A stretch of DNA of 64,000 nucleotides from the IMG/VR virus record IMGVR_UViG_3300031851_000001; one strand, given 5' to 3'. The notes beneath the pieces are model-generated. The model saw nothing but the letters and a program-made list of their open reading frames with translations. It searched no databases and was not told the DNA's origin. Shown here piece after piece: positions 5,962 through 63,932 of this stretch (positions are counted from its first letter, which is position 1; each line of letters starts with the position of its first letter). This DNA comes from a virus (Duplodnaviria; Caudoviricetes). The position numbers and the translations under genes were made by a program.

Positions 5962-6129
5962 ATGCCATACATATTACTTCGCAACAAGAGTGTGGTTCAG
6001 CATATTATAATGGTTGGACCAACAAACGATAACTTTAGAGAGTCAAAAGTAGTTGACTTAAAGTTTGAAACATTAGAGGCAGCCAATGAGGTTGCTGAAG
6101 TTTTGAAAGCTAAAGTAAAAGCAGCATAG
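5962..6129 (+). CDS. Small hypothetical protein (55 aa)
   Basis: Manual translation MPYILLRNKSVVQHIIMVGP...KAKVKAA; its TAG stop shares the first G of tRNA-Arg. Confidence 0.45.
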   Translation: MPYILLRNKSVVQHIIMVGPTNDNFRESKVVDLKFETLEAANEVAEVLKAKVKAA

Positions 6130-6206
6130 GTTCCTTAGCTCAGCCGGATTAGAGCAAGTGCCTTCTAAGCACTAGGTCGTAGGTTCGAGTCCTACAGGAA
6201 TCACCA
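6129..6206 (+). tRNA. tRNA-Arg(UCU)
   Basis: GGTTCCT/AGGAATC acceptor, AGTGC-CT TCT AA-GCACT anticodon arm, GTTCGAGTC T-loop, encoded CCA. Confidence 0.95.
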
Positions 6207-6215
6207 AATCAATAA

Positions 6216-6290
6216 TGGAACGTAGCATAATGGTAATGCATCGCTTTTTGGTAGCGCAGAGTATAGGTTCGAGTCCTATCGTTCCAGCCA
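6216..6290 (+). tRNA. tRNA-Gln(UUG)
   Basis: TGGAACG/CGTTCCA acceptor, anticodon loop TT TTG GT, GTTCGAGTC, encoded CCA. Confidence 0.9.
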
Positions 6291-6306
6291 AATAATAGGA
6301 AACAAA

Positions 6307-6489
6307 ATGTGGGTATTAGTCTTTATATATTTTTATGACTCAACACCATACGTAGAAACATATGACGTATATACTTCAATGACTGAATGCTTTAGAGGTA
6401 GAGAAGCATTGGCTGATGAAGTTGGAAAAGGCGCTGGGTATTTTAAACCCGGACAACAAGCAGTTTGCATAAACCTTCAGTCTACATAG
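6307..6489 (+). CDS. Hypothetical protein between tRNA genes
   Basis: 60-aa ORF with SD AGGAAA and two Cys. Confidence 0.55.
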   Translation: MWVLVFIYFYDSTPYVETYDVYTSMTECFRGREALADEVGKGAGYFKPGQQAVCINLQST

Positions 6490-6498
6490 AGACTGTTA

Positions 6499-6575
6499 GC
6501 CCGCGTGATGGAATTGGTATACATATTTGACTTAAAATCAAAGTTTTGCCGGTTCGAGTCCGGCCGCGGGTACCA
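6499..6575 (+). tRNA. tRNA-Leu(UAA) with short variable arm
   Basis: GCCCGCG/CGCGGGT acceptor, TTTGA-CT TAA AA-TCAAA, Leu-type D-arm, A73, encoded CCA. Confidence 0.9.
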
Positions 6576-16064: not shown

Positions 16065-16141
16065 CAGGGTGTAGCTCAGTATGGTAGAGTGTCGCACTTG
16101 GAATGCGAAGGTCGTTGGTTCAAGTCCAGCTACCCTGACCA
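16065..16141 (+). tRNA. tRNA-Pro(UGG)
   Basis: CAGGGTG/TACCCTG acceptor, TCGCA-CT TGG AA-TGCGA, GTTCAAGTC, encoded CCA. Confidence 0.95.
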
Positions 16142-19207: not shown

Positions 19208-20401
19208 ATGACAATGAAATGTATAGTTCCGGAAACCGGGATTACAATTAATCCTATTGGCGAAATGGTTATATGTTGTGCAGGTGACAACGTAGCGCTT
19301 TCGCATATCAAAGATGTGGATAACCTTACCGAGTTTTTTAATGGCGAAGTGTATGATAAACTTCGTTCTGACTTCAAAGAAAAGTCGTTTCCAAAACAAT
19401 GTAACGTATGTTGGAGACATTGGGATGCAGGTCGTATTGCTAGGTTTGACTCATACAACCGATTTAGCTTTCCTACATATGAAGAAGATTTAGCGTCTGA
19501 CGTTATTCCTATTAGATTTCTTGAGATCACAACAAGTAACATATGCAATCAAATGTGTGTCTCTTGTTCTGGTAAGTATTCTTCTAAGTGGTCGCCATAT
19601 GAAAAAATGGCGGTTGAGTCTGGTCTAACATGGCGCAACGAAAACCACAAGTTCCATACCAAAATGTATAAAATGACTAAGGCTGATGTTGATAAGGTAT
19701 TGGATATAGTTCCACACCTGCAGCATTTAACTATTAAGGGTGGTGAACCTTTTGCTGATCCTAATAACATAAAGATACTAAAAAAGTTAGCCGAAACTAA
19801 TCCCGGCTGCAGGGTAGAGATATGCACAAACATGCAACTCGTAACTAACACAGTTATTGAAATATTGCATCAGATAAACGAAGTACATATTCAAGCAAGC
19901 ATTGACGGCATACATGAAATGTATGATTGGATACGTGGAGGTAACTTTAAGAAGACAGTAAACAACATTAAGAGATACCACGAACACTCTGGACGTAAGG
20001 TAGTTATTGTATCAACAGTATCTGTATATAATTGGATGCACCTTCCAGAACTTATCGACTATTGGAAAACTATTGAGGGCGTGGATAGAATTAGCATGGC
20101 TAACCTTGTTACATTCCCTAAATATTGTAGTCCATGTTACCTAGACGAACACCACATAGAAGAAGGCAGAAACAAACTATTTGATTACTTAAAAGATTGG
20201 GATAAAAAGTCAGACACTTATTATACGACAGACAACCTACATTTATCAGGCATGAATAATGTATTGAGTGTGGTACAAGGTGATGATGATATTAAACTAA
20301 TACAAAAACGAATGATACAATGGATCGACTTTTGTTTAGTCGCTCGTGAAAACAATGAAGATATATATGAGTTAGCACCATACTTAGAGGATTACAGATG
20401 A
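19208..20401 (+). CDS. Radical SAM protein with N-terminal SPASM/twitch-like domain
   Basis: CNQMCVSC (CxxxCxxC), GGEP; N-terminal C...CC...CxxC. Confidence 0.88.
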   Translation: MTMKCIVPETGITINPIGEMVICCAGDNVALSHIKDVDNLTEFFNGEVYDKLRSDFKEKSFPKQCNVCWRHWDAGRIARFDSYNRFSFPTYEEDLASDVIPIRFLEITTSNICNQMCVSCSGKYSSKWSPYEKMAVESGLTWRNENHKFHTKMYKMTKADVDKVLDIVPHLQHLTIKGGEPFADPNNIKILKKLAETNPGCRVEICTNMQLVTNTVIEILHQINEVHIQASIDGIHEMYDWIRGGNFKKTVNNIKRYHEHSGRKVVIVSTVSVYNWMHLPELIDYWKTIEGVDRISMANLVTFPKYCSPCYLDEHHIEEGRNKLFDYLKDWDKKSDTYYTTDNLHLSGMNNVLSVVQGDDDIKLIQKRMIQWIDFCLVARENNEDIYELAPYLEDYR

Positions 20402-21468
20402 GTTGGGATTTTTTTCAATCCAATAGAACAATACCATCTCAACATAAGATGGTTTCTTGTTATGCTCCATTTAATCATATGCGAATCCGTAGAAACGGAG
20501 AAATGCACCCATGCTGTTTTTCAACACAAAAAACACGTTGGAAAAAAGATGAAGTTAGCCTAAAAGATTATTGGTTTGGAGAGTTAAACCAATCATATCA
20601 AGAAGCATTATTAGAAAATACTCTACACGACGGTTGCCAAAAAGTATGCGGTGCTAGAATAAATTCTAAAATAAAGCCGCCTATCAATGAATACGATCAT
20701 AATGTTGGTGACGATAGACTTAAACACGCATTATCATTATCTTATCCTAGAATTTTTGAGTTCGAAATATCAAATCTTTGCAACATGGCTTGTCCAATGT
20801 GTATGGGTGAGTTAAGTTCAAAGCATATGTTAGGACGCGATAAAAACTTAAAAGTTTATGACCCAAACACATTTGACGATGATGAAAATTTACAATCGTT
20901 ACTAGAAGAATTTAAAGAATTTGTTCCACACCTTGATGAAATAAGATTTGTTGGTGGAGAACCTTTTTCGCACAAAGCGTTATATAAACTATGTAGTATG
21001 ATTGCTAAAATTAATCCTAGTATGCGTATTCAAGTGTGTACTAATGGAAGTGTGTTTAATAAAAAAGTTCTTAAAATATGTAATGAAAATAATTTAAAGT
21101 TAACCATATCTGTTGATACAGTTGTTCCAAAAGAATATAGCCAGATTAGAATTGGTGGTAATTATGAAGAGACTTATAATAATGTGAAGAGATTTGGCGA
21201 ACGTTGCAAAGTTACAGTAAACGCGACTCTTATGTCTATAAACGCATTGAATATAGACAAGTTATTTGAATATGCTATGGAAAATGAATATGGTGTTTTC
21301 ATAAACACTTATGATAGATCAGGCAGAAGTCATACTGAAGATTGGAGCATAAGTACAATGAAAATGGTTGACAGGCAAGCTTCAGTTGACAGGCTTACTG
21401 CTTTATTGGGTGATGAAAATTATAAGAGACACTATGAAGAAATTAGAAAGATTATTAATTTGTTATGA
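20398..21468 (+). CDS. Radical SAM protein with N-terminal SPASM/twitch-like domain (paralog)
   Basis: CNMACPMC, GGEP; CYAPF...HPCC...CQKVC. Confidence 0.88.
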   Translation: MSWDFFQSNRTIPSQHKMVSCYAPFNHMRIRRNGEMHPCCFSTQKTRWKKDEVSLKDYWFGELNQSYQEALLENTLHDGCQKVCGARINSKIKPPINEYDHNVGDDRLKHALSLSYPRIFEFEISNLCNMACPMCMGELSSKHMLGRDKNLKVYDPNTFDDDENLQSLLEEFKEFVPHLDEIRFVGGEPFSHKALYKLCSMIAKINPSMRIQVCTNGSVFNKKVLKICNENNLKLTISVDTVVPKEYSQIRIGGNYEETYNNVKRFGERCKVTVNATLMSINALNIDKLFEYAMENEYGVFINTYDRSGRSHTEDWSISTMKMVDRQASVDRLTALLGDENYKRHYEEIRKIINLL

Positions 21469-30720: not shown

Positions 30721-30861
30721 TTGACATTGTTTGAAAACCGTATATAATAGATTTATCTACTAAACAATAATAATAGTTGTTATAATGGCTGTAACAAAAT
30801 AGTAACAGTATTTTTATTAAAATGGAAATCTATTGACATTTTAGCTCTACTGTATTATATA
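30721..30861 (+). promoter_or_regulatory. Two tandem sigma70-type promoters upstream of tmRNA
   Basis: TTGACA(30721)-16-TATAAT and TTGACA(30833)-17-TATATA. Confidence 0.7.
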
Positions 30862-30867
30862 TAACTA

Positions 30868-31150
30868 GTGAACGTTGAAATGACGTGAATACGGATCGGA
30901 CCTCGGGGCAGTACCGAGCATCTCCACCAAATTTACTCTGTAGGGTAAAAACTGATAATTTACTTTGTAGAGTAAATTTGATGGGGATGAACAAGGATCG
31001 ACGGACGGAATAGCTTAATGGAGTTCATCGGGTGATCGCGTATAGATCAATTAAACTAAATGCAAATGAAAATTTCGCACCATCTGGATTTGCTCTAGCA
31101 GCATAATCACAGGGGGGTTGTCCACTTACCTAGCAACAGAAAAGTGGTAC
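30868..31150 (+). ncRNA. ssrA: Circularly permuted (two-piece) tmRNA, alphaproteobacterial type
   Basis: Acceptor piece with T-arm CTCGG-GGCAGTA-CCGAG and CATCTCC-A-CCA (ends 30929); intervening hairpin 30930-30982; coding piece starts GGGGATG (30983) giving G3-U70; tag ORF 31062-31106 ANENFAPSGFALAA*. Confidence 0.93.
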
Positions 31151-31181
31151 TTAATAAAACTATTACAAGGAAAAAGGTAAC

Positions 31182-42293: not shown

Positions 42294-42422
42294 CACCTGA
42301 CATAATGTCACATTTGCATATAGTGAATACCGGCTAGTAAAAACTAGCAAGCCTAATTTTACCTTTTTACTAATAAATAAATTTGTTAAAACAAAGAAAC
42401 ATTTATTAGAAAAGGATTAATT

Positions 42423-42698
42423 ATGGCACACACGATTAATAGTAATTCATCTATTGCTTCAGTATTTGCATACAAAGTAGTAACATTCTTCGAAAGAATT
42501 GGCACGGCGATGGCTAAACGAGCAGAGCGTCGCGAAACATTCAAAACACTCCATAGATTAACAGATAGAGAATTAAACGACATTGGCATTAGCCGTGGCG
42601 ATATTCGTTCTATTGCTAATGACACTTGGGAAGATACTCGTAAACGCGATTCATTACCATATGTATCAGTTAACCCAAATTTAAGAGGATCAGTATAA
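42423..42698 (+). CDS. DUF1127 (YjiS-like) small protein
   Basis: RRETFKTLHRLTDRELNDIGISRGDI. Confidence 0.85.
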   Translation: MAHTINSNSSIASVFAYKVVTFFERIGTAMAKRAERRETFKTLHRLTDRELNDIGISRGDIRSIANDTWEDTRKRDSLPYVSVNPNLRGSV

Positions 42699-42886
42699 TG
42701 GAAATCACAGGTGAACAACCAGTAAGAATGCCAAAAATATTTAAACTATTAGCAAAAGGCTTAGTTGCTGTAGGAATGTTCTTATGGGCATTTGGCGAGT
42801 CAGCAGGCAGAGCAAGAGCAGCGAGTGAATTGTTTCGTCAAGGATATGTAGAAGAAGCAAGAAGATTAATGTTGGAGAGTAAATAA
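42698..42886 (+). CDS. Small Rhodobacteraceae-type hypothetical protein
   Basis: [23 protein letters not shown]. Confidence 0.55.
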
Positions 42887-43113
42887 TGACTGGTGATATA
42901 GCAACAATGGGCGCATTAATTGGCGCAGGATTGGCAACTTTAGGAATGGGTGGAGCGGCTATTGCCGTAGGAATTATAGTCGGAAGTGTGTTAAAAGTAA
43001 TGCCTAAAAAGGGTGAAGGCGATCAGGGAACAATGTTTGTAGGTATCGCATTTGCAGAAGCGTTGGGTATCTTTGCATTCTTGGTAGCGTTGCTACTAAT
43101 GTTTGCTGTATAA
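42886..43113 (+). CDS. atpE: ATP synthase F0 subunit c homolog
   Basis: [18 protein letters not shown] glycine helix; [13 protein letters not shown] with conserved Glu; ends LLMFAV as in alphaproteobacterial subunit c. Confidence 0.9.
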
Positions 43114-43334
43114 TGGTTGGTGATCAGCATATAGAAATATCAGCACAGGTAGTGCAGAAGTTAGGTTTTTATATGTTCGTCGTTATGACTTCATTAATAT
43201 TAATATGTATAGCGTTTGGATTTTACGCCGTGATTGACAAATACAAACAACCAAATTGGAAAGAAGTATGTATCGCAAAAGGCGGTGTACCAGTACAGTT
43301 AGAGAAATCATTCTTTGACTGCAAAAAGATGTAA
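43113..43334 (+). CDS. Small single-TM protein
   Basis: Hydrophobic helix, C-terminal C...C. Confidence 0.6.
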   Translation: MVGDQHIEISAQVVQKLGFYMFVVMTSLILICIAFGFYAVIDKYKQPNWKEVCIAKGGVPVQLEKSFFDCKKM

Positions 43335-43349
43335 GAAAGAGGAAACGGA

Positions 43350-43484
43350 ATGTTTAGACGATTTATGAAACTAATGGAATATAGAAGTTACTGCATGAGT
43401 ATTAAGCAGTTGAGAGAGATGGGCATGTATGACAAAGCTAACGAAATCTCAGAGTTCAAACACAACATGTATAAAACAAGTTAG
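43350..43484 (+). CDS. Small hypothetical protein (44 aa)
   Basis: Manual translation MFRRFMKLMEYRSYCMSIKQLREMGMYDKANEISEFKHNMYKTS; SD GAGGA. Confidence 0.55.
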   Translation: MFRRFMKLMEYRSYCMSIKQLREMGMYDKANEISEFKHNMYKTS

Positions 43485-43492
43485 GATATAAT

Positions 43493-43915
43493 ATGAAAAC
43501 ACTTTATTTTTATTTGGCACTATTCGCTGCAATTTTTACAGTGTCAGCAGCATCAGCAGACGTAACAATCGAAATGTTAAATAAGCGCGACGATGGCGCT
43601 AAGATGGTCTACTCACAAGATATTACACGTATCGAAGTAGGTGAGATTATCACATGGGTACCAACATCAAAAGGTCATAACGTAGAATTTATTGCAGGGC
43701 CAGACGGTTGGAAGAAACCAAAGAAATCAAAATTAAATAAAGTAGTTGAAATCCAGTTTAACACACCGGGTGTATATCTATATCAATGTTCACCACATAA
43801 GAGCATGGGTATGATTGCTATTGTAGTTGTAGGTGATGGAGATAATGATATTTCAAAAGCCAAAGTAAAGGGCAAATCAAAGAAAAAGCTTAAGGCTTTG
43901 TTAGGAGAACTATGA
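43493..43915 (+). CDS. paz: Pseudoazurin (type-1 blue copper protein)
   Basis: Signal peptide; KGHNV and YQCSPHKSMGM give His/Cys/His/Met ligands. Confidence 0.9.
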   Translation: MKTLYFYLALFAAIFTVSAASADVTIEMLNKRDDGAKMVYSQDITRIEVGEIITWVPTSKGHNVEFIAGPDGWKKPKKSKLNKVVEIQFNTPGVYLYQCSPHKSMGMIAIVVVGDGDNDISKAKVKGKSKKKLKALLGEL

Positions 43916-44081
43916 TAGATCCAGATCACACATTCATCAAACCTAAAGGTGAAAAGAAAAAAGGCGGCAAGTAATGCACGGTGATAGAGGTAACATTAAA
44001 ATTGTTTGGTTAATGTTATTCTTGTGCGTATTCTTACACGTTGGATTAATACCAGTTTGGATGTGGTATTTAGGTTTATAA
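43912..44081 (+). CDS. Two coupled micro-ORFs (43912-43974, 20 aa; 43974-44081, 35-aa TM peptide)
   Basis: MIDPDHTFIKPKGEKKKGGK and MHGDRGNIKIVWLMLFLCVFLHVGLIPVWMWYLGL; ATGA and TAATG overlaps. Confidence 0.5.
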
Positions 44082-44097
44082 TAACTTCAAAAAAACT

Positions 44098-44136
44098 TAT
44101 AAATAAAGGGTAGGCATTAAGTTGTCTACCTTTTTT
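44098..44136 (+). terminator. Late promoter followed by terminator-like hairpin
   Basis: TATAAATA at 44098; GGTAGGCA-TTAAGT-TGTCTACC-TTTTTT. Confidence 0.6.
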
Positions 44137-44719
44137 GATTCAACGGAGATATACTATGGGAAGAATACGTGATAGAGGTAATGACGGCGGAAACGTCTAT
44201 AGGTGGCAAACATTAGCCAACTTTGTTAACACTAATGGCTGGACAAAAGGCGCAGAGCTTGGTATCCACGATGGTGTTAATTTTAAATTTCTAATTAACA
44301 ATTGTCCAAAACTACACATGATTGGTGTGGATTTGTATGAAGCGCAGCCAGATAATAATGGACCAGAAAAATGGACACCCGGAGAACATGGGCACGCTTG
44401 GGATCATAATAGATACTATAACGATTTAAGAGAGTTTGAAGAATATAATCCAGACAGAGTTGATATTATAAAAGACTATACTACTGAAGCTGCTAAAACA
44501 GTTGACGATAAAAGTTTAGATTTTGTTTTTGTTGATGCTGACCACGGATACGAAGGTTGCCTAAGAGATATTAAAGCTTGGGATAGTAAAGTAAGAGATG
44601 GTGGTATTATGTTTGGACATGATATACATTTCCCTACTGTCAAACAGGCAGTAACAGAGTTTTATGGAGAGAACTCTTGGCACGTAGAAGACGATTTTAT
44701 TTGGTGGGTACAGAAGTGA
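44135..44719 (+). CDS. Class I SAM methyltransferase (Methyltransf_24-like)
   Basis: GAELGI, VDLY, FVFVDADH, GGIMFGHD. Confidence 0.8.
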   Translation: MIQRRYTMGRIRDRGNDGGNVYRWQTLANFVNTNGWTKGAELGIHDGVNFKFLINNCPKLHMIGVDLYEAQPDNNGPEKWTPGEHGHAWDHNRYYNDLREFEEYNPDRVDIIKDYTTEAAKTVDDKSLDFVFVDADHGYEGCLRDIKAWDSKVRDGGIMFGHDIHFPTVKQAVTEFYGENSWHVEDDFIWWVQK

Positions 44720-45366
44720 ACATTCCAAAAAGACTAAGCCAAATATGGGTTGGACCACGCCCTGCTCCACTCCAATGGCTTCACACTTGGAGAGACAAAC
44801 ATCCTGAGTGGGAATACTCTATATTTACTGATGAAATGTTACGATCGCGTAAATGGCATAATAGTCATTTGATTGAACACTATTATAACACAGGTAAATT
44901 CCCAGGAGTATCCGATCTTATCCGATACGAACTGCTATACGAACATGGTGGATTTTGGCCTGAGGCTGATATGACTTGTTTAGAAAATACTGATGAGTTA
45001 TTTACATCACCAGAGAATTACGCTTATTCTTGTTACGAAAATGAAAAACTACCAACACCAAACATTCAACCTATTATGGCATGTAATCCTGAGAATGTAT
45101 TCGTCAAACATGTTATTAATACACTCCATAAATTAAAACCAACTGATTTAAGCCCAGAGCCATTTAGATCCACGGGTAATCTATTTCTATCTAAACACCA
45201 CCCAAATTTTAAACATATGATAACTATATGGCCAAGTCATTATTTTATTCCGTTGTTTTATATTGGTGGCGCAAAAAGATATAATGGACCAGATAAAGTT
45301 TATGCAGACCATAAATGGGGATCTACTGGACATGCAAATAGTATAACATATGATAAGGGTATATAA
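44716..45366 (+). CDS. GT32-like (DxD) glycosyltransferase
   Basis: IPKRLSQIWVG, SDLIRYELLYEHGGFW.EAD; GTG start 44716. Confidence 0.75.
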   Translation: MNIPKRLSQIWVGPRPAPLQWLHTWRDKHPEWEYSIFTDEMLRSRKWHNSHLIEHYYNTGKFPGVSDLIRYELLYEHGGFWPEADMTCLENTDELFTSPENYAYSCYENEKLPTPNIQPIMACNPENVFVKHVINTLHKLKPTDLSPEPFRSTGNLFLSKHHPNFKHMITIWPSHYFIPLFYIGGAKRYNGPDKVYADHKWGSTGHANSITYDKGI

Positions 45367-46037
45367 TGTACATATCTCACAAATATAAATTAATATTTTT
45401 ACGAACACCAAAAACTGCGAGCAGCAGCTTATCTGAGTTCTTTATTAAAAACATTCCTGATCCTAACGCAATTTATACACCGGTTGAAGATTCTAATATA
45501 CCAGCCACGTTAAGCCAAGATATAATTAATAAGTATAAATTAAACTTTAAATATTATCATTTTACATTACAGGATTTAGTTGAAAATCGTATTATAACTC
45601 CAATGGCTGCTATTGAATATAAATCTATTGCGGTCGTAAGAGATCCTGTTGATAGACAAAAAAGCTTTTACTATTTCTATAAGAGGTGGACTAATAATCA
45701 TATACCGCCGTCAATAGAAGAATATAATTCTTGGACACCAAAAGGTCCTTTTATTGGCGAACCAAACTCTGGTATATTACAATCCGATATATTAAAATAT
45801 AATAACGAAATACACGGTGAGTATTGGCTATACGAAAACATAAGCAACGACTTAAGTGCTCTTATGCGCGAATTAAATATACAAGTAAAGCATATGTTAC
45901 CTAACCATAAAAACGATTTTAGAAAAAACCGAAATAACGAAATAACTTTTGATAATAGAGCGATGGATGTTATGTTAGAATACTTTGCAAACGATATAAC
46001 TTTATATAACGAACTTGCTGAGGAAACATACGTATGA
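45366..46037 (+). CDS. Sulfotransferase family 2 protein
   Basis: FLRTPKTASSS 5'-PSB loop, VVRDPVDR..S. Confidence 0.8.
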   Translation: MYISHKYKLIFLRTPKTASSSLSEFFIKNIPDPNAIYTPVEDSNIPATLSQDIINKYKLNFKYYHFTLQDLVENRIITPMAAIEYKSIAVVRDPVDRQKSFYYFYKRWTNNHIPPSIEEYNSWTPKGPFIGEPNSGILQSDILKYNNEIHGEYWLYENISNDLSALMRELNIQVKHMLPNHKNDFRKNRNNEITFDNRAMDVMLEYFANDITLYNELAEETYV

Positions 46038-46723
46038 AGGCGTATATTTTAAAAATTGATAATAAGTTATCGCACGATTATGCAAAAGTTGCTGCTGACT
46101 CTTGTGATAAGATTGGTTTACCTTGGACATATCATTTAGGATATAGTAATCAGTCAGGTAAAGCAGCATTTAAAGATTTAGGTATACCTAGATTACCAAC
46201 TGAAAATTATGAATATATTGCGGAACCAACTAATGGTCAAAAAGCAATGTGTTGTACCGCTGGTCATTTTGCTATATGGAAAAGGATTGCTGAAGGTACT
46301 GACAATATAGGGATTGTACTTGAACACGATGCAATAATGCTCCAACGCCCTTGCAAATTTATAACTATACCAGAAAATACTATTGTTGTGTTAGGATATA
46401 AAATATCAGATCCAGAAAATTATAAACATGAAGAGGCTGGTCCACCAACTGATTTGATACCAATTATTGGTCATGAAGGAGCTCATGCATACGCTATGAC
46501 TAGACGAACTGCACAGTTTTTAATTAACGAAATATCCCAAAAAGGTATAAGAAGCGCAGTTGATAATGATTACTTTATTCGTGGTCAGCGTAGAACAGCC
46601 ATGCCATTACACATAGCCTCGCCAACTCCTGCACTTGGATGGATTAGGGAGTCGACTATTTGGGCAAAATCGGCTTCTAATAACTATGAATTCATACCCT
46701 CTTTTCAAAAATATTATAAATAG
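46034..46723 (+). CDS. GT25-like glycosyltransferase
   Basis: CCTAGHFAIW, VLEHDA, HAYAMT, AVD. Confidence 0.7.
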   Translation: MKAYILKIDNKLSHDYAKVAADSCDKIGLPWTYHLGYSNQSGKAAFKDLGIPRLPTENYEYIAEPTNGQKAMCCTAGHFAIWKRIAEGTDNIGIVLEHDAIMLQRPCKFITIPENTIVVLGYKISDPENYKHEEAGPPTDLIPIIGHEGAHAYAMTRRTAQFLINEISQKGIRSAVDNDYFIRGQRRTAMPLHIASPTPALGWIRESTIWAKSASNNYEFIPSFQKYYK

Positions 46724-46754
46724 AATTAAATCTAATATACTAGGATCTACAATT

Positions 46755-49106
46755 ATGGTTGACGAACCGCAAGACATTAATGACCCGAAGAATAACGATG
46801 AAGACGAAGTCAAACCTAAGCCAAAGGCGAAGGATAAAGATGGCAAGCGAAAACTTCAAAGCTTTAAAGGATTTGATGCAAACAAATATGTTGATGTTGA
46901 ACCAACATTAGCTGAGGCAGCTGGCGACGATAAACCAGCAGTCGTAACATTTGGCAGAATGAATCCAATTACAGTAGGTCATGAAAAATTAGCAGCCGCT
47001 GTTATTTCAAACGCGAAGCAACGTGGTGGTACCCCTTATATTTACCTTTCGCAATCACAAGATAAAAACAAAAATCCATTAAGTTATAATGATAAAATCA
47101 AATACGCGCAAAAGGCGTTTGGGCCAGCAGTCATTAAATCAAAAGCTCGTACTATCATTGAAGTGATGGTTGAGTTAAGTGGCAAACATAAAGATGTTAT
47201 AGTAGTTGTTGGTTCTGACAGGGTAAAAGAATTTGATAGACTATTAAACAAATATAATAAATCCTCTGCTGGCTATGTATTCAATAATATAAAAGTTGTA
47301 TCAGCAGGCCAACGCGATCCTGATGCCGAAGGCGTTAAAGGAATGTCTGGAACTAAAATGCGTGGCTACGCCGCGGATAACGATGTTAAGAAATTCGCAA
47401 CCGGATTACCAAGTAAACTAAAAACAAGCGCAGCCGCGATATTAGCCGACGTGCGAAAGGGAATGAACATGTCAGAAGATAACGATAACGAATTTGAAAA
47501 CATTGAGGAAATTGTAGAAGATACACAAGATCTCGATGAAGTATTAGACCGTATGCAGCGCCGAGCTATTGGTATTAGAATGCGTAAAAACAGACATAAA
47601 ATGAAACGTGGTAGAGAAAAAGCGGCTCGACGAACTGCAACTATGGAAGTACTTAAGAAACGTGCTCGCAAACAGGCAATCATAAATCTTAAAAACCGTT
47701 TTGCAAAAAATAAACGATATGCTGATATGTCGTCTGGTGAAAAGATTGTAATTGATAAGCGTGTTGCTAAATTCTCTAAACAAAGATTAGATGCAATGGC
47801 GCGTAAGTTATTACCAAAAGTTAAAATTAAAGAACGCGATCGTAAAAGAGCTAAGAATAAAAATGAAAATTTGGATATGAATACGCAGTTCCAAAACTTT
47901 ATGACAGAAAAAACTGGACCATATTATAAAGGTGTAGCTCAGGATAAAAAAGACGATCGTGAAGATCACTTTGAGCGTAATGCCAAAAAGGCTGATAACG
48001 ATGCCTCTGCATATAAGCCGGCTCCCGGAGATAAAGAAGCAAAGACTAAAGAGTCAAAGCATACTAAAAAAGCTCGTGCAATGGGTTATACTGAAGAGTT
48101 GGAAGAAAGCCATATCTGGGGACAACGTCAAGGTAAACGCCCTCATATGCTTTTAGACAAAAATGGCAAGACAAAGTTTGATAAGCGTTTCAAAATGTAT
48201 AAGCCAAAACTTCAAGAAAACGTTGATGAGTTTAACATTGAAGATATTACAGATTTAATGGAATCAACAGAGTCATATATTAAAGAAGATGCTGCTGATA
48301 AATCTTTGGCTAAAAAAGCTGACAAATCTGGTATGCCACAAGGTGTTTTAAAACAAGTATATAACCGTGGTGTAGCTGCGTGGAAAACTGGTCATAGACC
48401 GGGAACTACACCAGAACAATGGGGACATGCTCGAGTAAACTCTTTTATTACTAAATCTTCTGGTACATGGGGCAAAGCTGATAAAGACTTGGCTGCTAAA
48501 GTACGTAAAGAAGAAGTAGAACTTGAAGAAACATATAAGATTACTAAAGTATATAATCCAACTACGAAAAAATCTCGTGCAGCTGGAAAAAGTACAGCAA
48601 CGTTTGCGGTACATACACATGATCGTAAATACTTTAAAGAGTTTCCAAATCAAAAAGATGCTGAAAACCATATGAAATCTCTCGGTAAAAAAGAAGAAAC
48701 CAACCTCGACGAAATGGATTTTTCTATTAAATCAGTAAAGAAATCTGGTTTAGCCAATGTTAAAAAGGCAAATAACTTTGATAAATTAAAAGCTGATATT
48801 GCTAAAATGAGAAAAAATCTCAATAAAGGTAAACCACTTCAAGCTGAAGCAGAAATTAATGAGTTAGATAAAGATACGCTTGCTAACTATGCCAATAAGG
48901 CTATTAAAGATAAAGAGCAAGCTCAATATAACAAAAGCCGTGCTCAAAATTCTAGAGCAGCTAATGTTGTTCGTGGTAACTCAGACGGCATCAAAAAAGA
49001 TGTTAAAGATATTGACAAAGCTGATGCGAGAATTAAACGTCGCGAACGTGGCGCAGCAAACTTCACTCGTAAAATATTAAAGGGTGATAAGGAAAACGAA
49101 GAATGA
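46755..49106 (+). CDS. Cytidylyltransferase-like (HxGH) nucleotidyltransferase fused to multiple small modules
   Basis: TFGRMNPITVGH, VVGSDR, SAGQRDPDAEG...MSGTKMR; late promoter at 46715; start moved to 46755. Confidence 0.75.
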   Translation: MVDEPQDINDPKNNDEDEVKPKPKAKDKDGKRKLQSFKGFDANKYVDVEPTLAEAAGDDKPAVVTFGRMNPITVGHEKLAAAVISNAKQRGGTPYIYLSQSQDKNKNPLSYNDKIKYAQKAFGPAVIKSKARTIIEVMVELSGKHKDVIVVVGSDRVKEFDRLLNKYNKSSAGYVFNNIKVVSAGQRDPDAEGVKGMSGTKMRGYAADNDVKKFATGLPSKLKTSAAAILADVRKGMNMSEDNDNEFENIEEIVEDTQDLDEVLDRMQRRAIGIRMRKNRHKMKRGREKAARRTATMEVLKKRARKQAIINLKNRFAKNKRYADMSSGEKIVIDKRVAKFSKQRLDAMARKLLPKVKIKERDRKRAKNKNENLDMNTQFQNFMTEKTGPYYKGVAQDKKDDREDHFERNAKKADNDASAYKPAPGDKEAKTKESKHTKKARAMGYTEELEESHIWGQRQGKRPHMLLDKNGKTKFDKRFKMYKPKLQENVDEFNIEDITDLMESTESYIKEDAADKSLAKKADKSGMPQGVLKQVYNRGVAAWKTGHRPGTTPEQWGHARVNSFITKSSGTWGKADKDLAAKVRKEEVELEETYKITKVYNPTTKKSRAAGKSTATFAVHTHDRKYFKEFPNQKDAENHMKSLGKKEETNLDEMDFSIKSVKKSGLANVKKANNFDKLKADIAKMRKNLNKGKPLQAEAEINELDKDTLANYANKAIKDKEQAQYNKSRAQNSRAANVVRGNSDGIKKDVKDIDKADARIKRRERGAANFTRKILKGDKENEE

Positions 49107-59269: not shown

Positions 59270-60562
59270 ATGTTAGAAAACACTCAATCAATTTCAAATG
59301 TAATAGAATTACCTAGACTAGTTAATTATGTAACTAAACGTGACGGGACCACTAAGGACTTCGATAAAAATAAGATTACATATGCAGTAGAAAAGGCAAT
59401 GAAAGGAATTGGTATTCGAAGTAAAAACTTATCAAGTGAAATTACTTCAGAGGTGGTTGAAACCATCAACAACGAATCAACTGACGTTATTGTGAGTGTT
59501 GATACTATTCACAAAACAGTTGAAAACGTTATTATGGATATGGGATTACACGACTTGGCGAGAGAGTATATCCTATTCCGTTTTAACAATAAGCCTGACA
59601 TCTTTCGTAAACGTACGAGTCTTAAACCATACGAATATCCTCAGCTGGTAGAATTTACTGATGCTATTCGCCATTCATATTGGGTACATACAGAGTTTAA
59701 TTACTCGTCAGATATCCAAGATATGAAAGTTAAAATGACAGAGCCAGAAGTTGAAATCGTAAAGAAAGCTATGTTGGCTATCTCTCAGATTGAAGTTGCG
59801 GTTAAAACATTTTGGGCTAAGATTGGCGACCGTTTCCCTAAACCAGAAGTAGCAGCGGTAGGCATTACGTTTGGCGAATCAGAAGTACGTCATGCTGATG
59901 CGTATTCAAATCTAATTGAAATCATGGGTCTTAACGAAGAGTTTGAAAAGGTAGTCGAAGTACCGGCTATGAAAAAGCGTATCGCTTACCTTGAGCAATC
60001 AATCGGTGCCCCCGCAGATGATAAAGACTATTTCCACAAAATTATTCTATTCTCTATGTTTGTGGAAAACGTTTCATTGTTTAGTCAATTCCTTATTATG
60101 ATGGCTTTCAATAAACATAAGAATGTTCTCAAAGGTATTTCAAATGCTGTTGAAGCAACATCAAAAGAAGAAGATATTCACGCTCGTTTTGGTTTTGAAC
60201 TAGTGAATATTATTAGAGAAGAAAACCCAGATTGGTTCGACAAAGATAGTAACAATGAAGTTAATCGTCTTTGCCGTGACGCATTCAAAGCAGAGTCTGC
60301 TATCGTTGATTGGATTTATGCCGACCACGATTTAGACTTTTTACCTAAAGCAACAGTGAAAGAATTCTTAAAGCATCGTTTCAATCAATCATTGAAAGCA
60401 ATTGATATGAAGCCTTTATATGAGGTAGACGAAGAGGCAGTCGCAAGTACTGACTGGTTTGTAGAAGAAATCCTAAGTACTAAAAATGTTGACTTTTTCG
60501 TCAAGCGTTCAACCGCTTATTCAAAGAAAACAAAAGCCTTCACCGAAGACGACCTCTTTTAG
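59270..60562 (+). CDS. nrdB: Ribonucleotide reductase class I beta subunit with N-terminal ATP-cone
   Basis: VTKRDG...FDKNKI ATP-cone; EVRHADAY and EDIHARFG di-metal motifs. Confidence 0.92.
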   Translation: MLENTQSISNVIELPRLVNYVTKRDGTTKDFDKNKITYAVEKAMKGIGIRSKNLSSEITSEVVETINNESTDVIVSVDTIHKTVENVIMDMGLHDLAREYILFRFNNKPDIFRKRTSLKPYEYPQLVEFTDAIRHSYWVHTEFNYSSDIQDMKVKMTEPEVEIVKKAMLAISQIEVAVKTFWAKIGDRFPKPEVAAVGITFGESEVRHADAYSNLIEIMGLNEEFEKVVEVPAMKKRIAYLEQSIGAPADDKDYFHKIILFSMFVENVSLFSQFLIMMAFNKHKNVLKGISNAVEATSKEEDIHARFGFELVNIIREENPDWFDKDSNNEVNRLCRDAFKAESAIVDWIYADHDLDFLPKATVKEFLKHRFNQSLKAIDMKPLYEVDEEAVASTDWFVEEILSTKNVDFFVKRSTAYSKKTKAFTEDDLF

Positions 60563-62274: not shown

Positions 62275-63471
62275 ATGAACTATCTGAAATACTTTGAAAA
62301 AACAGTTAAAGAATTTAAAGCCGATGGCAGATATAGAGTCTTTAACGATATACTTAGAGAGCGAGGGTCTTTCCCTCGTTCAATATGGTATGGTAAGTAT
62401 GCTCCAAAAAATATAGTGAACTGGTGTTCTAATGATTATTTAGGTATGGGTCAAAATCCATATGTTATTGATTCAATGCATACAGCTTTGGATCAGACAG
62501 GTGCTGGATCAGGCGGTACTCGTAATATAGGTGGAACATCACATTACCATGTTACATTAGAGCGAGAGATAGCATCTTTACATAAAACTCAATCGGCATT
62601 AATATTTACAAGCGCATATGTTGCTAATGAATGGTCACTTATAGCCTTATCTAAAATTATACCAAATATATGTTTTGTTTCTGATAGCAAAAACCATGCT
62701 TCAATTATTATGGGTATGGTAAATAGTAGAGCAGAAAAACTAATATTTGAACATAACGATATGTCTGATTTGGAAACAAAACTCAAACTGGCGCTTAAAC
62801 GTAAACTAAACCCCGTAATTGTATTTGAGTCAATATACTCGATGGACGGAGATGTATCACCTATAAAATCAATAGTTGATCTGGCATATAAATATAAGGC
62901 AATGACTTATATAGACGAGGTCCATGCAGTAGGTCTTTATGGTAAAACAGGCGCTGGGTATTGTGAAGAGCTAAACTTATATTCTGATAGTATCGACATT
63001 GTGAACGGTACATTGGGAAAAGCTTACGGCGTCCAAGGAGGTTACATTGCAGGTAATCAAACTATTATTGACGCTATTAGGTCGACGGCAAGTGGTTTCA
63101 TATTCACTACCAGTATGTCACCAGTTATATGCGCTGGGGCACTCGCCAGTATAAATTATCTAAAGGATCACAACTCCCTTAGAGAAAAACATCAAGAACG
63201 TGTTGCCAAACTCAAAGGCATGCTTATTGATGCAGGAATAAATATCCATCCAAACGCTTGTACTCACATTATACCAGTGATGGTCAATGATGCGTTTAAA
63301 TGTAAAGAAGCTTCGGATAGATTAATAAACGAATTCGGTATATACATACAACCAATTAATTCTCCAACAGTGGAACAAGGGACCGAGCGATTACGTATCG
63401 CACCTACTCCATACCATACCGATATAATGATGGTAGAATTAGTTGAAGCGCTGAAAGAAGTATTGAAATGA
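62275..63471 (+). CDS. hemA: 5-aminolevulinate synthase
   Basis: [33 protein letters not shown] (PLP Lys), FIFTTS. Confidence 0.93.
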
Positions 63472-63932
63472 ATCAATTAGAAAATGCATTCTTCAGTAAA
63501 AAGGAAAATAACATGACTAGAATTAAAAAAGCTTTTTGGTTTACACTTGGAATTCTATTAGTCGGCGTAGCTTACCTCGGTGTAATACTACCCGGACTAC
63601 CTTGGAGTACACCAATCTTAGGCGCAACATTTTGTTTTGCAAAGTCAAGTGATAGGCTACACGGTTGGATTATGAATCATCCAAAGTTTGGTCCGTTTGT
63701 TAAAAACTGGTCAACATACAGAGTTTATCCAACCTTAGCAAAATGGGCAATGGTTGGCGTTATGTCAACATCATTAGCATTTATGTACTTTGGTACAGGT
63801 AATGAAAAAGCAACATTATATATGTTTATTACTTTTGCACTTATAGTTTTTTGGGCATGGCGTTACCCAGGATCGCAAGCTGAAGCTGAACGTCGTATTG
63901 AAGCCGGTGAAAAAATCGGTTGGTTGAAATAA
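63468..63932 (+). CDS. YbaN/DUF454 family inner-membrane protein
   Basis: [12 protein letters not shown]...[20 protein letters not shown]. Confidence 0.85.

Follow-up and report, generated by a model that had tools for sequence, protein, structure and literature searches.

The conserved R-(Q/N)-P motif in the loop of the F-type ATP synthase c subunit contacts the gamma and epsilon subunits of F1, and loop mutants of Escherichia coli uncouple F1 from Fo. Here, we describe a phage-encoded homologue of this subunit, hereafter the c-like protein, in which the motif has been replaced. Its gene lies on the plus strand at positions 42886-43113 of a 64,000-nucleotide stretch of Caudoviricetes DNA (IMG/VR record IMGVR_UViG_3300031851_000001; this whole stretch is called the window, and coordinates refer to it). 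The AtpE of Rhodobacterales, represented by the c12 ring of Paracoccus denitrificans (pdb, 5DN6), shares with the c-like protein the two-helix hairpin, the Gly-rich helix 1, and the glutamate of the FAEAL motif. The phage protein departs from AtpE in its replaced R-N-P loop, in being encoded by a phage in which no gene for a, b, b′, or AtpI was found, and in its coupling to small proteins that occur only in phages. In functional terms, the nearest precedent comes from Acetobacterium woodii, whose heteromeric c-ring (c1 with c2/c3; pdb, 4BEM) contains a variant c subunit that co-assembles with the normal ones and alters the ring. In that system, the variant has lost the ion site, is encoded in a cellular atp operon, and sits in a ring coupled to F1, whereas the phage c-like protein is the product of a viral gene that has kept the ion site and lost the F1 dock.

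Host-derived bioenergetic genes are also carried by marine T4-like phages, as in the case of cyanophage PetE, PTOX, and psbA, and here a pseudoazurin-like gene shares the cassette of the c-like gene. However, the cyanophage genes are thought to sustain a host function, while the c-like protein has lost the motif required for its normal one. To our knowledge, the ATP synthase is not among the recognized targets of phage takeover. Searches of the literature uncovered no account of a c subunit encoded by a phage, and a survey of pelagimyophages makes no mention of the ATP synthase. Two further texts returned by these searches proved irrelevant: K02110 in a 2026 preprint concerns eukaryotic expression, and the "ATP synthase subunit C" of a paper on glacier ice is a quantitative PCR target.

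The c-like protein and its family

The 75-residue c-like protein matches the Pfam family PF00137 (ATP-synt_C) along the entire profile (positions 1-60 of 60; E=1.5e-11, 44.8 bits for a cut-off of 24). With a Rhodobacterales AtpE, it shares 66.7% identity (tblastn, E=4e-25); that AtpE is encoded on a contig of 60% GC within a normal atpI-atpB-atpE-atpF'-atpF operon. Compared with the Rhodobacterales consensus, the only changes in helix 2 are two conservative exchanges, M/L and V/I, and the FAEAL glutamate is kept. This residue, E58, which is the ion-binding carboxylate, is invariant in an alignment of 40 sequences and in all listed phage variants. The Gly-rich packing motif of helix 1 is likewise retained, with G20, G29, and G33 invariant or nearly so in the same alignment; the surrounding region reads AVGIIVGS in the c-like protein and GVGNVVGN in cells. 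The AlphaFold model is a helical hairpin, with helices at residues 5-38 and 47-73 joined by a loop at 39-46 (predicted local distance difference test score, 79). Nearly all the top PDB matches of this model in Foldseek are ATP synthase c-ring subunits, and the best of them, the P. denitrificans c subunit of 5DN6 (TM-score 0.73), is also the best PDB match by sequence. The family profile, the alignment, and the predicted hairpin thus confirm the first-pass annotation of this DNA, which had likened both transmembrane helices and the FAEAL glutamate to those of Rhodobacteraceae AtpE.

The loop itself is three residues shorter than the cellular (A/S)GALRNP(S/A/T)A, or (A/S)GALRNPSAAxGQ in its extended form, and R-N-P is gone. 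Cellular relatives were sought in one genome per species from 185,579 species; the best 80 share at most 72% identity with the c-like protein, and GALRNP is present in 80/80, one of which is frameshifted. The altered loop is therefore shared by 0/80 of the best cellular relatives, and the initial observation that the R-(N/Q)-P loop had been rewritten stands. With the NCBIfam model NF005733, an equivalog for the alphaproteobacterial F0F1 subunit C, the protein scores 65.8 bits, under the cut-off of 85. The c-like protein belongs to the PF00137 superfamily and is not an AtpE equivalog, since the NCBIfam cut-off, the loop motif, and the operon context all fail.

A protein search with the c-like sequence returned 868 relatives, which fall into four groups according to their loop: the cellular Rhodobacterales GALRNP form, a 78-residue A(L/M)PHRS form, a 77-residue KASTAVKD form, and a 73-76-residue MPKK form, to which the protein of the window belongs. 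Every examined context of a loop-altered sequence is phage-like DNA. In a maximum-likelihood tree, 113/113 loop-altered sequences form a single clade (ultrafast bootstrap 100, approximate likelihood ratio test 87, present in 100% of bootstrap trees). This clade is nested in Rhodobacterales AtpE, and its sister is the cellular gene mentioned above, which lies in an atpI-B-E-F'-F operon. R-N-P is kept in 0/113 members, whose loops are 3-5 residues shorter. The phage gene thus descends from a Rhodobacterales-type AtpE via a single capture, and the loss of R-N-P goes far back and extends to all members of a large phage clade, instead of being peculiar to the phage of the window. The GC content of the gene, which has drifted to 43% versus 61% in the nearest cellular gene, indicates that the capture is old. 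Full-length ALPHRS forms branch first in the tree and short MPKK forms last, which suggests a stepwise shortening of the loop, from the 78-residue ALPHRS form through that of 77 residues to the MPKK forms; the branching order inside the clade is nevertheless uncertain because the grouping draws on an alignment of just 78 columns and is itself aided by those of the loop. A scan of IMG/VR with a non-Rhodobacterales c subunit, of limited sensitivity, gave only this family and no independent capture of another c type.

The phage gene is as strongly constrained as its cellular counterpart. Among 45 distinct MPKK-group genes, for which synonymous divergence is near saturation (dS 0.88), dN/dS is 0.085 overall, 0.105 in helix 1, and 0.036 in helix 2, with a pN/pS of 0.22 in the loop; the corresponding values for cellular Rhodobacterales genes are 0.073, 0.114, and 0.019, with 0.084 in the loop. 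The new loop is conserved too, as K-x-M-P-K-K within the MPKK group. Comparison with the neighboring genes in the same 66 loci gives a non-synonymous divergence (pN) of 0.082 for the c-like gene and only 0.035 for its helix 2, versus 0.384, 0.335, and 0.258 for the neighbors, so that the c-like gene evolves 3-5 times slower than the rest of its cassette. Even the transmembrane helix of the adjacent 73-residue protein, described below, has a pN of 0.214. Helix 2 falls far below this value for an ordinary membrane helix of the same genomes and is therefore held by something that evolves slowly, such as host Fo parts or the ion site. This suggests that helix 2 may still contact slowly evolving host parts, that is, the host c subunit, the a subunit, or both.

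The loop-altered genes are carried by T4-like contigs with gp45, gp44, RegA, and a B-family DNA polymerase, by 72 IMG/VR contigs, by polA-type phage contigs, and by one 328-kb metagenome contig, which is probably a jumbo phage and whose genes strongly match PHROG families. Protein clusters of the family are represented on as many as 112 contigs. DNA nearly identical to that of the window is present in 20 public runs from 17 studies (6 RNA libraries from 4 studies among them). Public databases label the family members as ordinary "F0F1 ATP synthase subunit C". Within the first 12,237 nucleotides of the 328-kb contig (1-12237), the four-gene cassette stands beside genes for IF3, ribosomal protein S21, ClpS, IMPDH, a class II aminoacyl-tRNA-synthetase-like protein, and a xanthine/uracil-permease-like protein, several of which have PHROG matches at E < 1e-100. 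A gene with a PEPCK_ATP domain (PF01293) recurs beside a gp46-like SMC_N gene in T4-like contigs that bear the c-like gene (L003-L005) and in the 328-kb contig (L006).

The gene cassette and its transcript

The c-like gene is part of a cassette of four plus-strand genes, which encode a DUF1127 protein, a 62-residue protein, the c-like protein, and a 73-residue protein. Homologues of these are found in 76/80, 73/80, 78/80, and 75/80 related loci, respectively. In nearly all of the 56 distinct loci in which overlaps were read, the stop and start codons of successive genes overlap by 1-11 nucleotides, and on this basis the cassette is judged to be translationally coupled. Its position varies among T4-like genomes, which indicates that its genes move together.

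The most faithful companion of the c-like gene is the phage-specific, one-helix membrane protein of 73 residues encoded immediately downstream (43113-43334, plus strand), hereafter the partner. Its start overlaps the stop of the c-like gene by 1 nucleotide in 44/54 distinct loci. The protein consists of an N-terminal amphipathic stretch, a transmembrane helix with the motif C-I-x-(F/I)-G-F-(Y/F)-A-V, and an optional tail with two cysteines, which is absent from versions of 37-42 residues; its model is one long helix covering residues 3-45. The family is tiny, with 10 cluster representatives among 1.84 billion in a profile search. In polA-type phages, the partner adjoins the c-like gene on either side, both look-ups started from partner homologues led to a position next to a c-like gene, and a c-like gene is adjacent in every partner context examined, other phage types included. 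As a small membrane protein that may be dedicated to a ring, the partner can be likened to the single-pass helices Voa1, Ac45, and PRR of the V-ATPase c-ring and to the assembly helper AtpI/UncI. By hhalign, no sequence relation of the partner to Fo subunits was detected (probability for AtpI, 8%; for b or b′, at most 0.2%). No charged position is conserved in the partner helix as a possible substitute for the a-subunit arginine.

The cassette opens with an arginine-rich, YjiS-like DUF1127 protein of 91 residues (42423-42698, plus strand; PF06568, E=3.4e-12), which is encoded directly upstream in 76/80 loci and also adjoins c-like genes in polA-type phage contigs. Its stop codon overlaps the start of the 62-residue gene by 1 nucleotide. 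The domain is shared with the Agrobacterium tumefaciens SDPs and Salmonella YjiS; the phage versions are longer and have a conserved N-x-N-L-x-G-(W/S)-V end, and their tie to the c-like protein is one of gene neighborhood alone. Cellular DUF1127 proteins are associated with the inner membrane, and their binding targets are membrane proteins, PhoR among them (PMC12648545, PMC11707872). The 62-residue protein (42698-42886, plus strand) has one hydrophobic helix and the conserved C-terminal motif G-x-(S/A)-R-A-A-x-E-L-x-R-x-G-x-x-E-E-A-x-x-L-M; its stop codon shares 1 nucleotide with the start codon of the c-like gene. Its ESM Atlas neighbors are exclusively viral.

Three accessory or candidate genes follow on the same strand. 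A basic helical protein of 44 residues (MEYRSYCM...EISEFKHNMY; 43350-43484) has homologues in 38/80 loci. It may be a distant paralogue of the 62-residue protein, given an hhalign probability of 25% (P=8e-4, 21 columns) in which A-x-E-L-x-R-x-G-x-x-E-E-A is paired with I-K-Q-L-R-E-M-G-M-Y-D-K-A. Pfam, PHROGs, NCBIfam, and the ESM Atlas returned no family for the 62-, 73-, and 44-residue proteins. A derivation of the 62- and 73-residue families from AtpI, b′, or b was rejected (hhalign probability at most 8%). For the 62-residue protein, a hidden Markov model also gave weak matches (E 0.08-0.5) to Arg/Ala-rich open reading frames (ORFs) upstream of cellular atp operons, and these were judged to be noise. 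The pseudoazurin-like blue copper protein (43493-43915; PF00127, E=2.9e-14), with an N terminus resembling a signal peptide, is present in 14/80 loci and scores 96.7 bits with NCBIfam TIGR02375, below the cut-off of 109.85. Lastly, the RNA-covered unit closes with a candidate ORF for a hydrophobic product of 35 residues (43974-44081; KD19 2.56).

In three RNA runs from three studies, assembled contigs begin at 42425-42445 and stop at 44044-44073. They have no loose ends at these points, the flanks are covered little or not at all, and the pseudoazurin-like gene lies on the same contigs as the c-like gene. They fit a unit reaching from a sigma-70-like promoter candidate (CTGACA-16-TATAGT; 42297-42324, plus strand) to a terminator-like hairpin at about 44107-44137. 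The promoter candidate, which has 10/12 consensus matches, lies just past the stop of an upstream structural-type gene, and the RNA contigs of the three runs start 100-120 nucleotides downstream of it; such sites are no more common here than in shuffled sequence. The hairpin (AAAGGGTAGGC...GTCTACCTTTTTT; 44107-44137, plus strand) has a T-run and precedes the next gene; it was recognized by eye, the automatic scan having passed over it because its loop exceeds the limit. Since these assembled contigs come from runs chosen for containing the stretch, with no DNA run beside them for comparison, the hint they give of a separate and well-expressed cassette transcript is weak to moderate.

The phage genome and its host

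The DNA of the window, part of the genome of a T4-like phage, has about 36% GC and encodes topoisomerase II, UvsX, a gp41-type helicase, gp32, and NrdA/NrdB; across the window and its related contigs, the T4 hallmarks are topoisomerase II, UvsX, gp41, gp32, gp45, gp44, and NrdAB. Searches by tblastn with AtpI, a, b′, and b gave no match, either in the window or across the related phage loci, about 80 in number, and no F1 alpha/beta domain occurs among the window ORFs of at least 400 residues, smaller F1 subunits not having been searched for directly. The first-pass statement that the window holds no other atp gene is accordingly upheld for the Fo genes and, among ORFs of that length, for F1 alpha/beta, and does not extend to the smaller F1 subunits. 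The GenBank phage collection contains no match to the c-like protein or to 10 kb of DNA, and the gene is carried by no cultured relative. By helicase, the nearest cultured relatives are the Sinorhizobium phages phiM12, phiM7, and phiN3 (56%).

Several features point to an alphaproteobacterial host, namely a permuted tmRNA of the alphaproteobacterial type, a 5-aminolevulinate synthase, DUF1127, and pseudoazurin. The two-piece tmRNA (30813-31151, plus strand) scores 104.5 bits with Rfam RF01849 and 100.7 bits with RF04321. Its tag, as read by ARAGORN, is ANENFAPSGFALAA (…APSGFALAA), which ends like two Rhodobacterales tags, ANDNRAPVALAA and ANDNKAPMALAA (…AP(V/M)ALAA), and unlike five other alphaproteobacterial tags (…AVAA, AIAA, RKAA); we regard this resemblance as a weak hint of a roseobacter-like host. 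A comparison of the tmRNA with 401 alphaproteobacterial genomes gave matches to short conserved cores alone (45/401), and GC content is not decisive. The 5-aminolevulinate synthase, an enzyme of the Shemin pathway (62275-63471, plus strand), scores 544 bits with TIGR01821, for a cut-off of 338.6. The next gene (63468-63932) encodes a DUF454-like membrane protein.

The window has other features of its own, all on the plus strand. Directly 3' of the cassette, a glycan-modification run (44135-49106) comprises a methyltransferase, a DXD glycosyltransferase, a sulfotransferase, a family-25 glycosyltransferase, and an 823-residue cytidylyltransferase-like protein with DUF5824. Four tRNA genes, for Arg-TCT, Gln-TTG, Leu-TAA, and Pro-TGG, lie at 6129-6575 and 16065-16141. 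Two adjoining radical SAM proteins (19208-21468) each carry a SPASM domain N-terminal to the radical SAM domain. The ribonucleotide reductase small subunit (59270-60562) has an N-terminal ATP-cone (PF03477 + PF00268); the usual place of this domain is the large subunit, and its presence in the small subunit is uncommon.

Possible modes of action

Based on the above data, we propose that the c-like protein could be a rotor subunit blind to F1, which joins host c-rings or imitates them and weakens the link between proton flow and ATP, a reading to which we assign a probability of about 40%. The c-like gene probably alters the energy machine of the host instead of supplying a spare part. The retention of ring packing and proton site, the shedding of the loop in 113/113 members, and strong selection are best understood if the rotor subunit is intended to stay free of F1. 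During infection, the newly made hairpin would insert into the host inner membrane, where the one-helix partner could help or cap its assembly into c-rings, built from the phage protein alone or together with host c. Such rings would still meet the proton path of the host a subunit and would be unable to dock the gamma/epsilon stalk of F1. The outcome would be an Fo whose proton flow is loosened from ATP synthesis and hydrolysis, the protein serving as a throttle, uncoupler, or brake, not as an extra ATP synthase. As the first-pass annotation had supposed, we infer from the sequence that entry into host c-rings might uncouple or throttle the ATP synthase.

Several considerations weigh against this proposal. 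Assembled c-rings are stable and do not readily exchange subunits, so that a poison subunit would act solely on rings made after infection starts, and the benefit of uncoupling to a lytic phage is unclear. The conservation of helix 2 could instead reflect the intrinsic needs of a self-made ring. Moreover, the argument from helix 2 needs a host with a c subunit of the Rhodobacterales type. The c subunits of SAR11-like genomes (1.2-1.3 Mb, 30% GC) share just 35-39% identity with the c-like protein, and the mixed-ring idea would therefore be weaker if the host were not roseobacter-like. In this respect, the 5-aminolevulinate synthase of the window falls in a phage AlaS group reported to be closest to Pelagibacteraceae (PMC11480375).

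The close association with the partner allows for other arrangements. It is possible, though doubtful, that the two proteins form a membrane device of the phage's own, in which a c-type ring that keeps the proton site and lacks F1 is joined by the one-helix partner and tuned by DUF1127; such a device could hijack the host a subunit for a controlled proton path or constitute a new F1-free rotor or channel. An autonomous assembly, which we consider unlikely, would be a ring or pore of c-like protein and partner, free of both F1 and the a subunit and without contact to the host ATP synthase, through which ions or protons leak in a regulated manner or which acts as a membrane organizer, for example in lysis timing, superinfection exclusion, or depolarization. 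Single-pass helices do sit inside V-ATPase c-rings, and a leak channel formed by the mitochondrial c-ring has been proposed. The always adjacent and translationally coupled phage-only partner, the lack of any other Fo gene found, the shortened loop of all members, and the further small membrane proteins of the cassette would all suit such an assembly. However, the glutamate and the whole outer helix still match the cellular protein almost letter for letter, although synonymous change is saturated, which is hard to explain without contact to a or host c, and the partner helix offers no conserved charge to replace the a-subunit arginine.

Conversely, the phage subunit might mix into or replace host rings that still bind F1, through host subunits or through the new loop, and so shift ring size or the H+/ATP ratio during infection, without uncoupling. 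At any given moment, the stalk is in contact with no more than a few c loops. Heteromeric c-rings exist, that of A. woodii (c1/c2/c3; 4BEM) being among the PDB matches, helix 1 differs at the Gly motif and nearby positions, and the new K-x-M-P-K-K loop is under purifying selection (pN/pS 0.22). Nonetheless, we hold such a change of gear to be improbable: had improved coupling been the purpose, one would expect the docking motif to be retained, yet R-N-P is lost in every phage copy (0/113) from a loop up to 5 residues shorter, and the protein scores below the equivalog cut-off. Finally, the gene could be thought the remnant of a captured atpE in decay, or a piece of cellular sequence mis-assembled or mis-binned with phage DNA, in line with an NCBI nr entry that names one member from a metagenome-assembled genome "F0F1 ATP synthase subunit C [Saprospirales bacterium]" and with the translation-type genes of the 328-kb carrier. 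We give this next to no credence in view of the dN/dS of 0.085 over saturated dS, the intact reading frame in more than 100 variants, the RNA contigs covering the gene, the 72 IMG/VR loci, the T4 hallmark genes in the same window and contigs, and the strong PHROG matches of the 328-kb contig itself.

If true, the two-part device of c-type ring and partner would be the first viral takeover of the ATP synthase rotor and a natural "uncoupled Fo". The c-like variant is a natural and strongly selected c subunit, widespread in seawater, in which the proton site is kept and the F1 dock is gone. It could serve as a probe of c-ring assembly, of the tolerance of mixed subunits, and of Fo without F1 in the living cell, and it may reveal a novel means by which marine phages redirect the energy of the hosts they infect.
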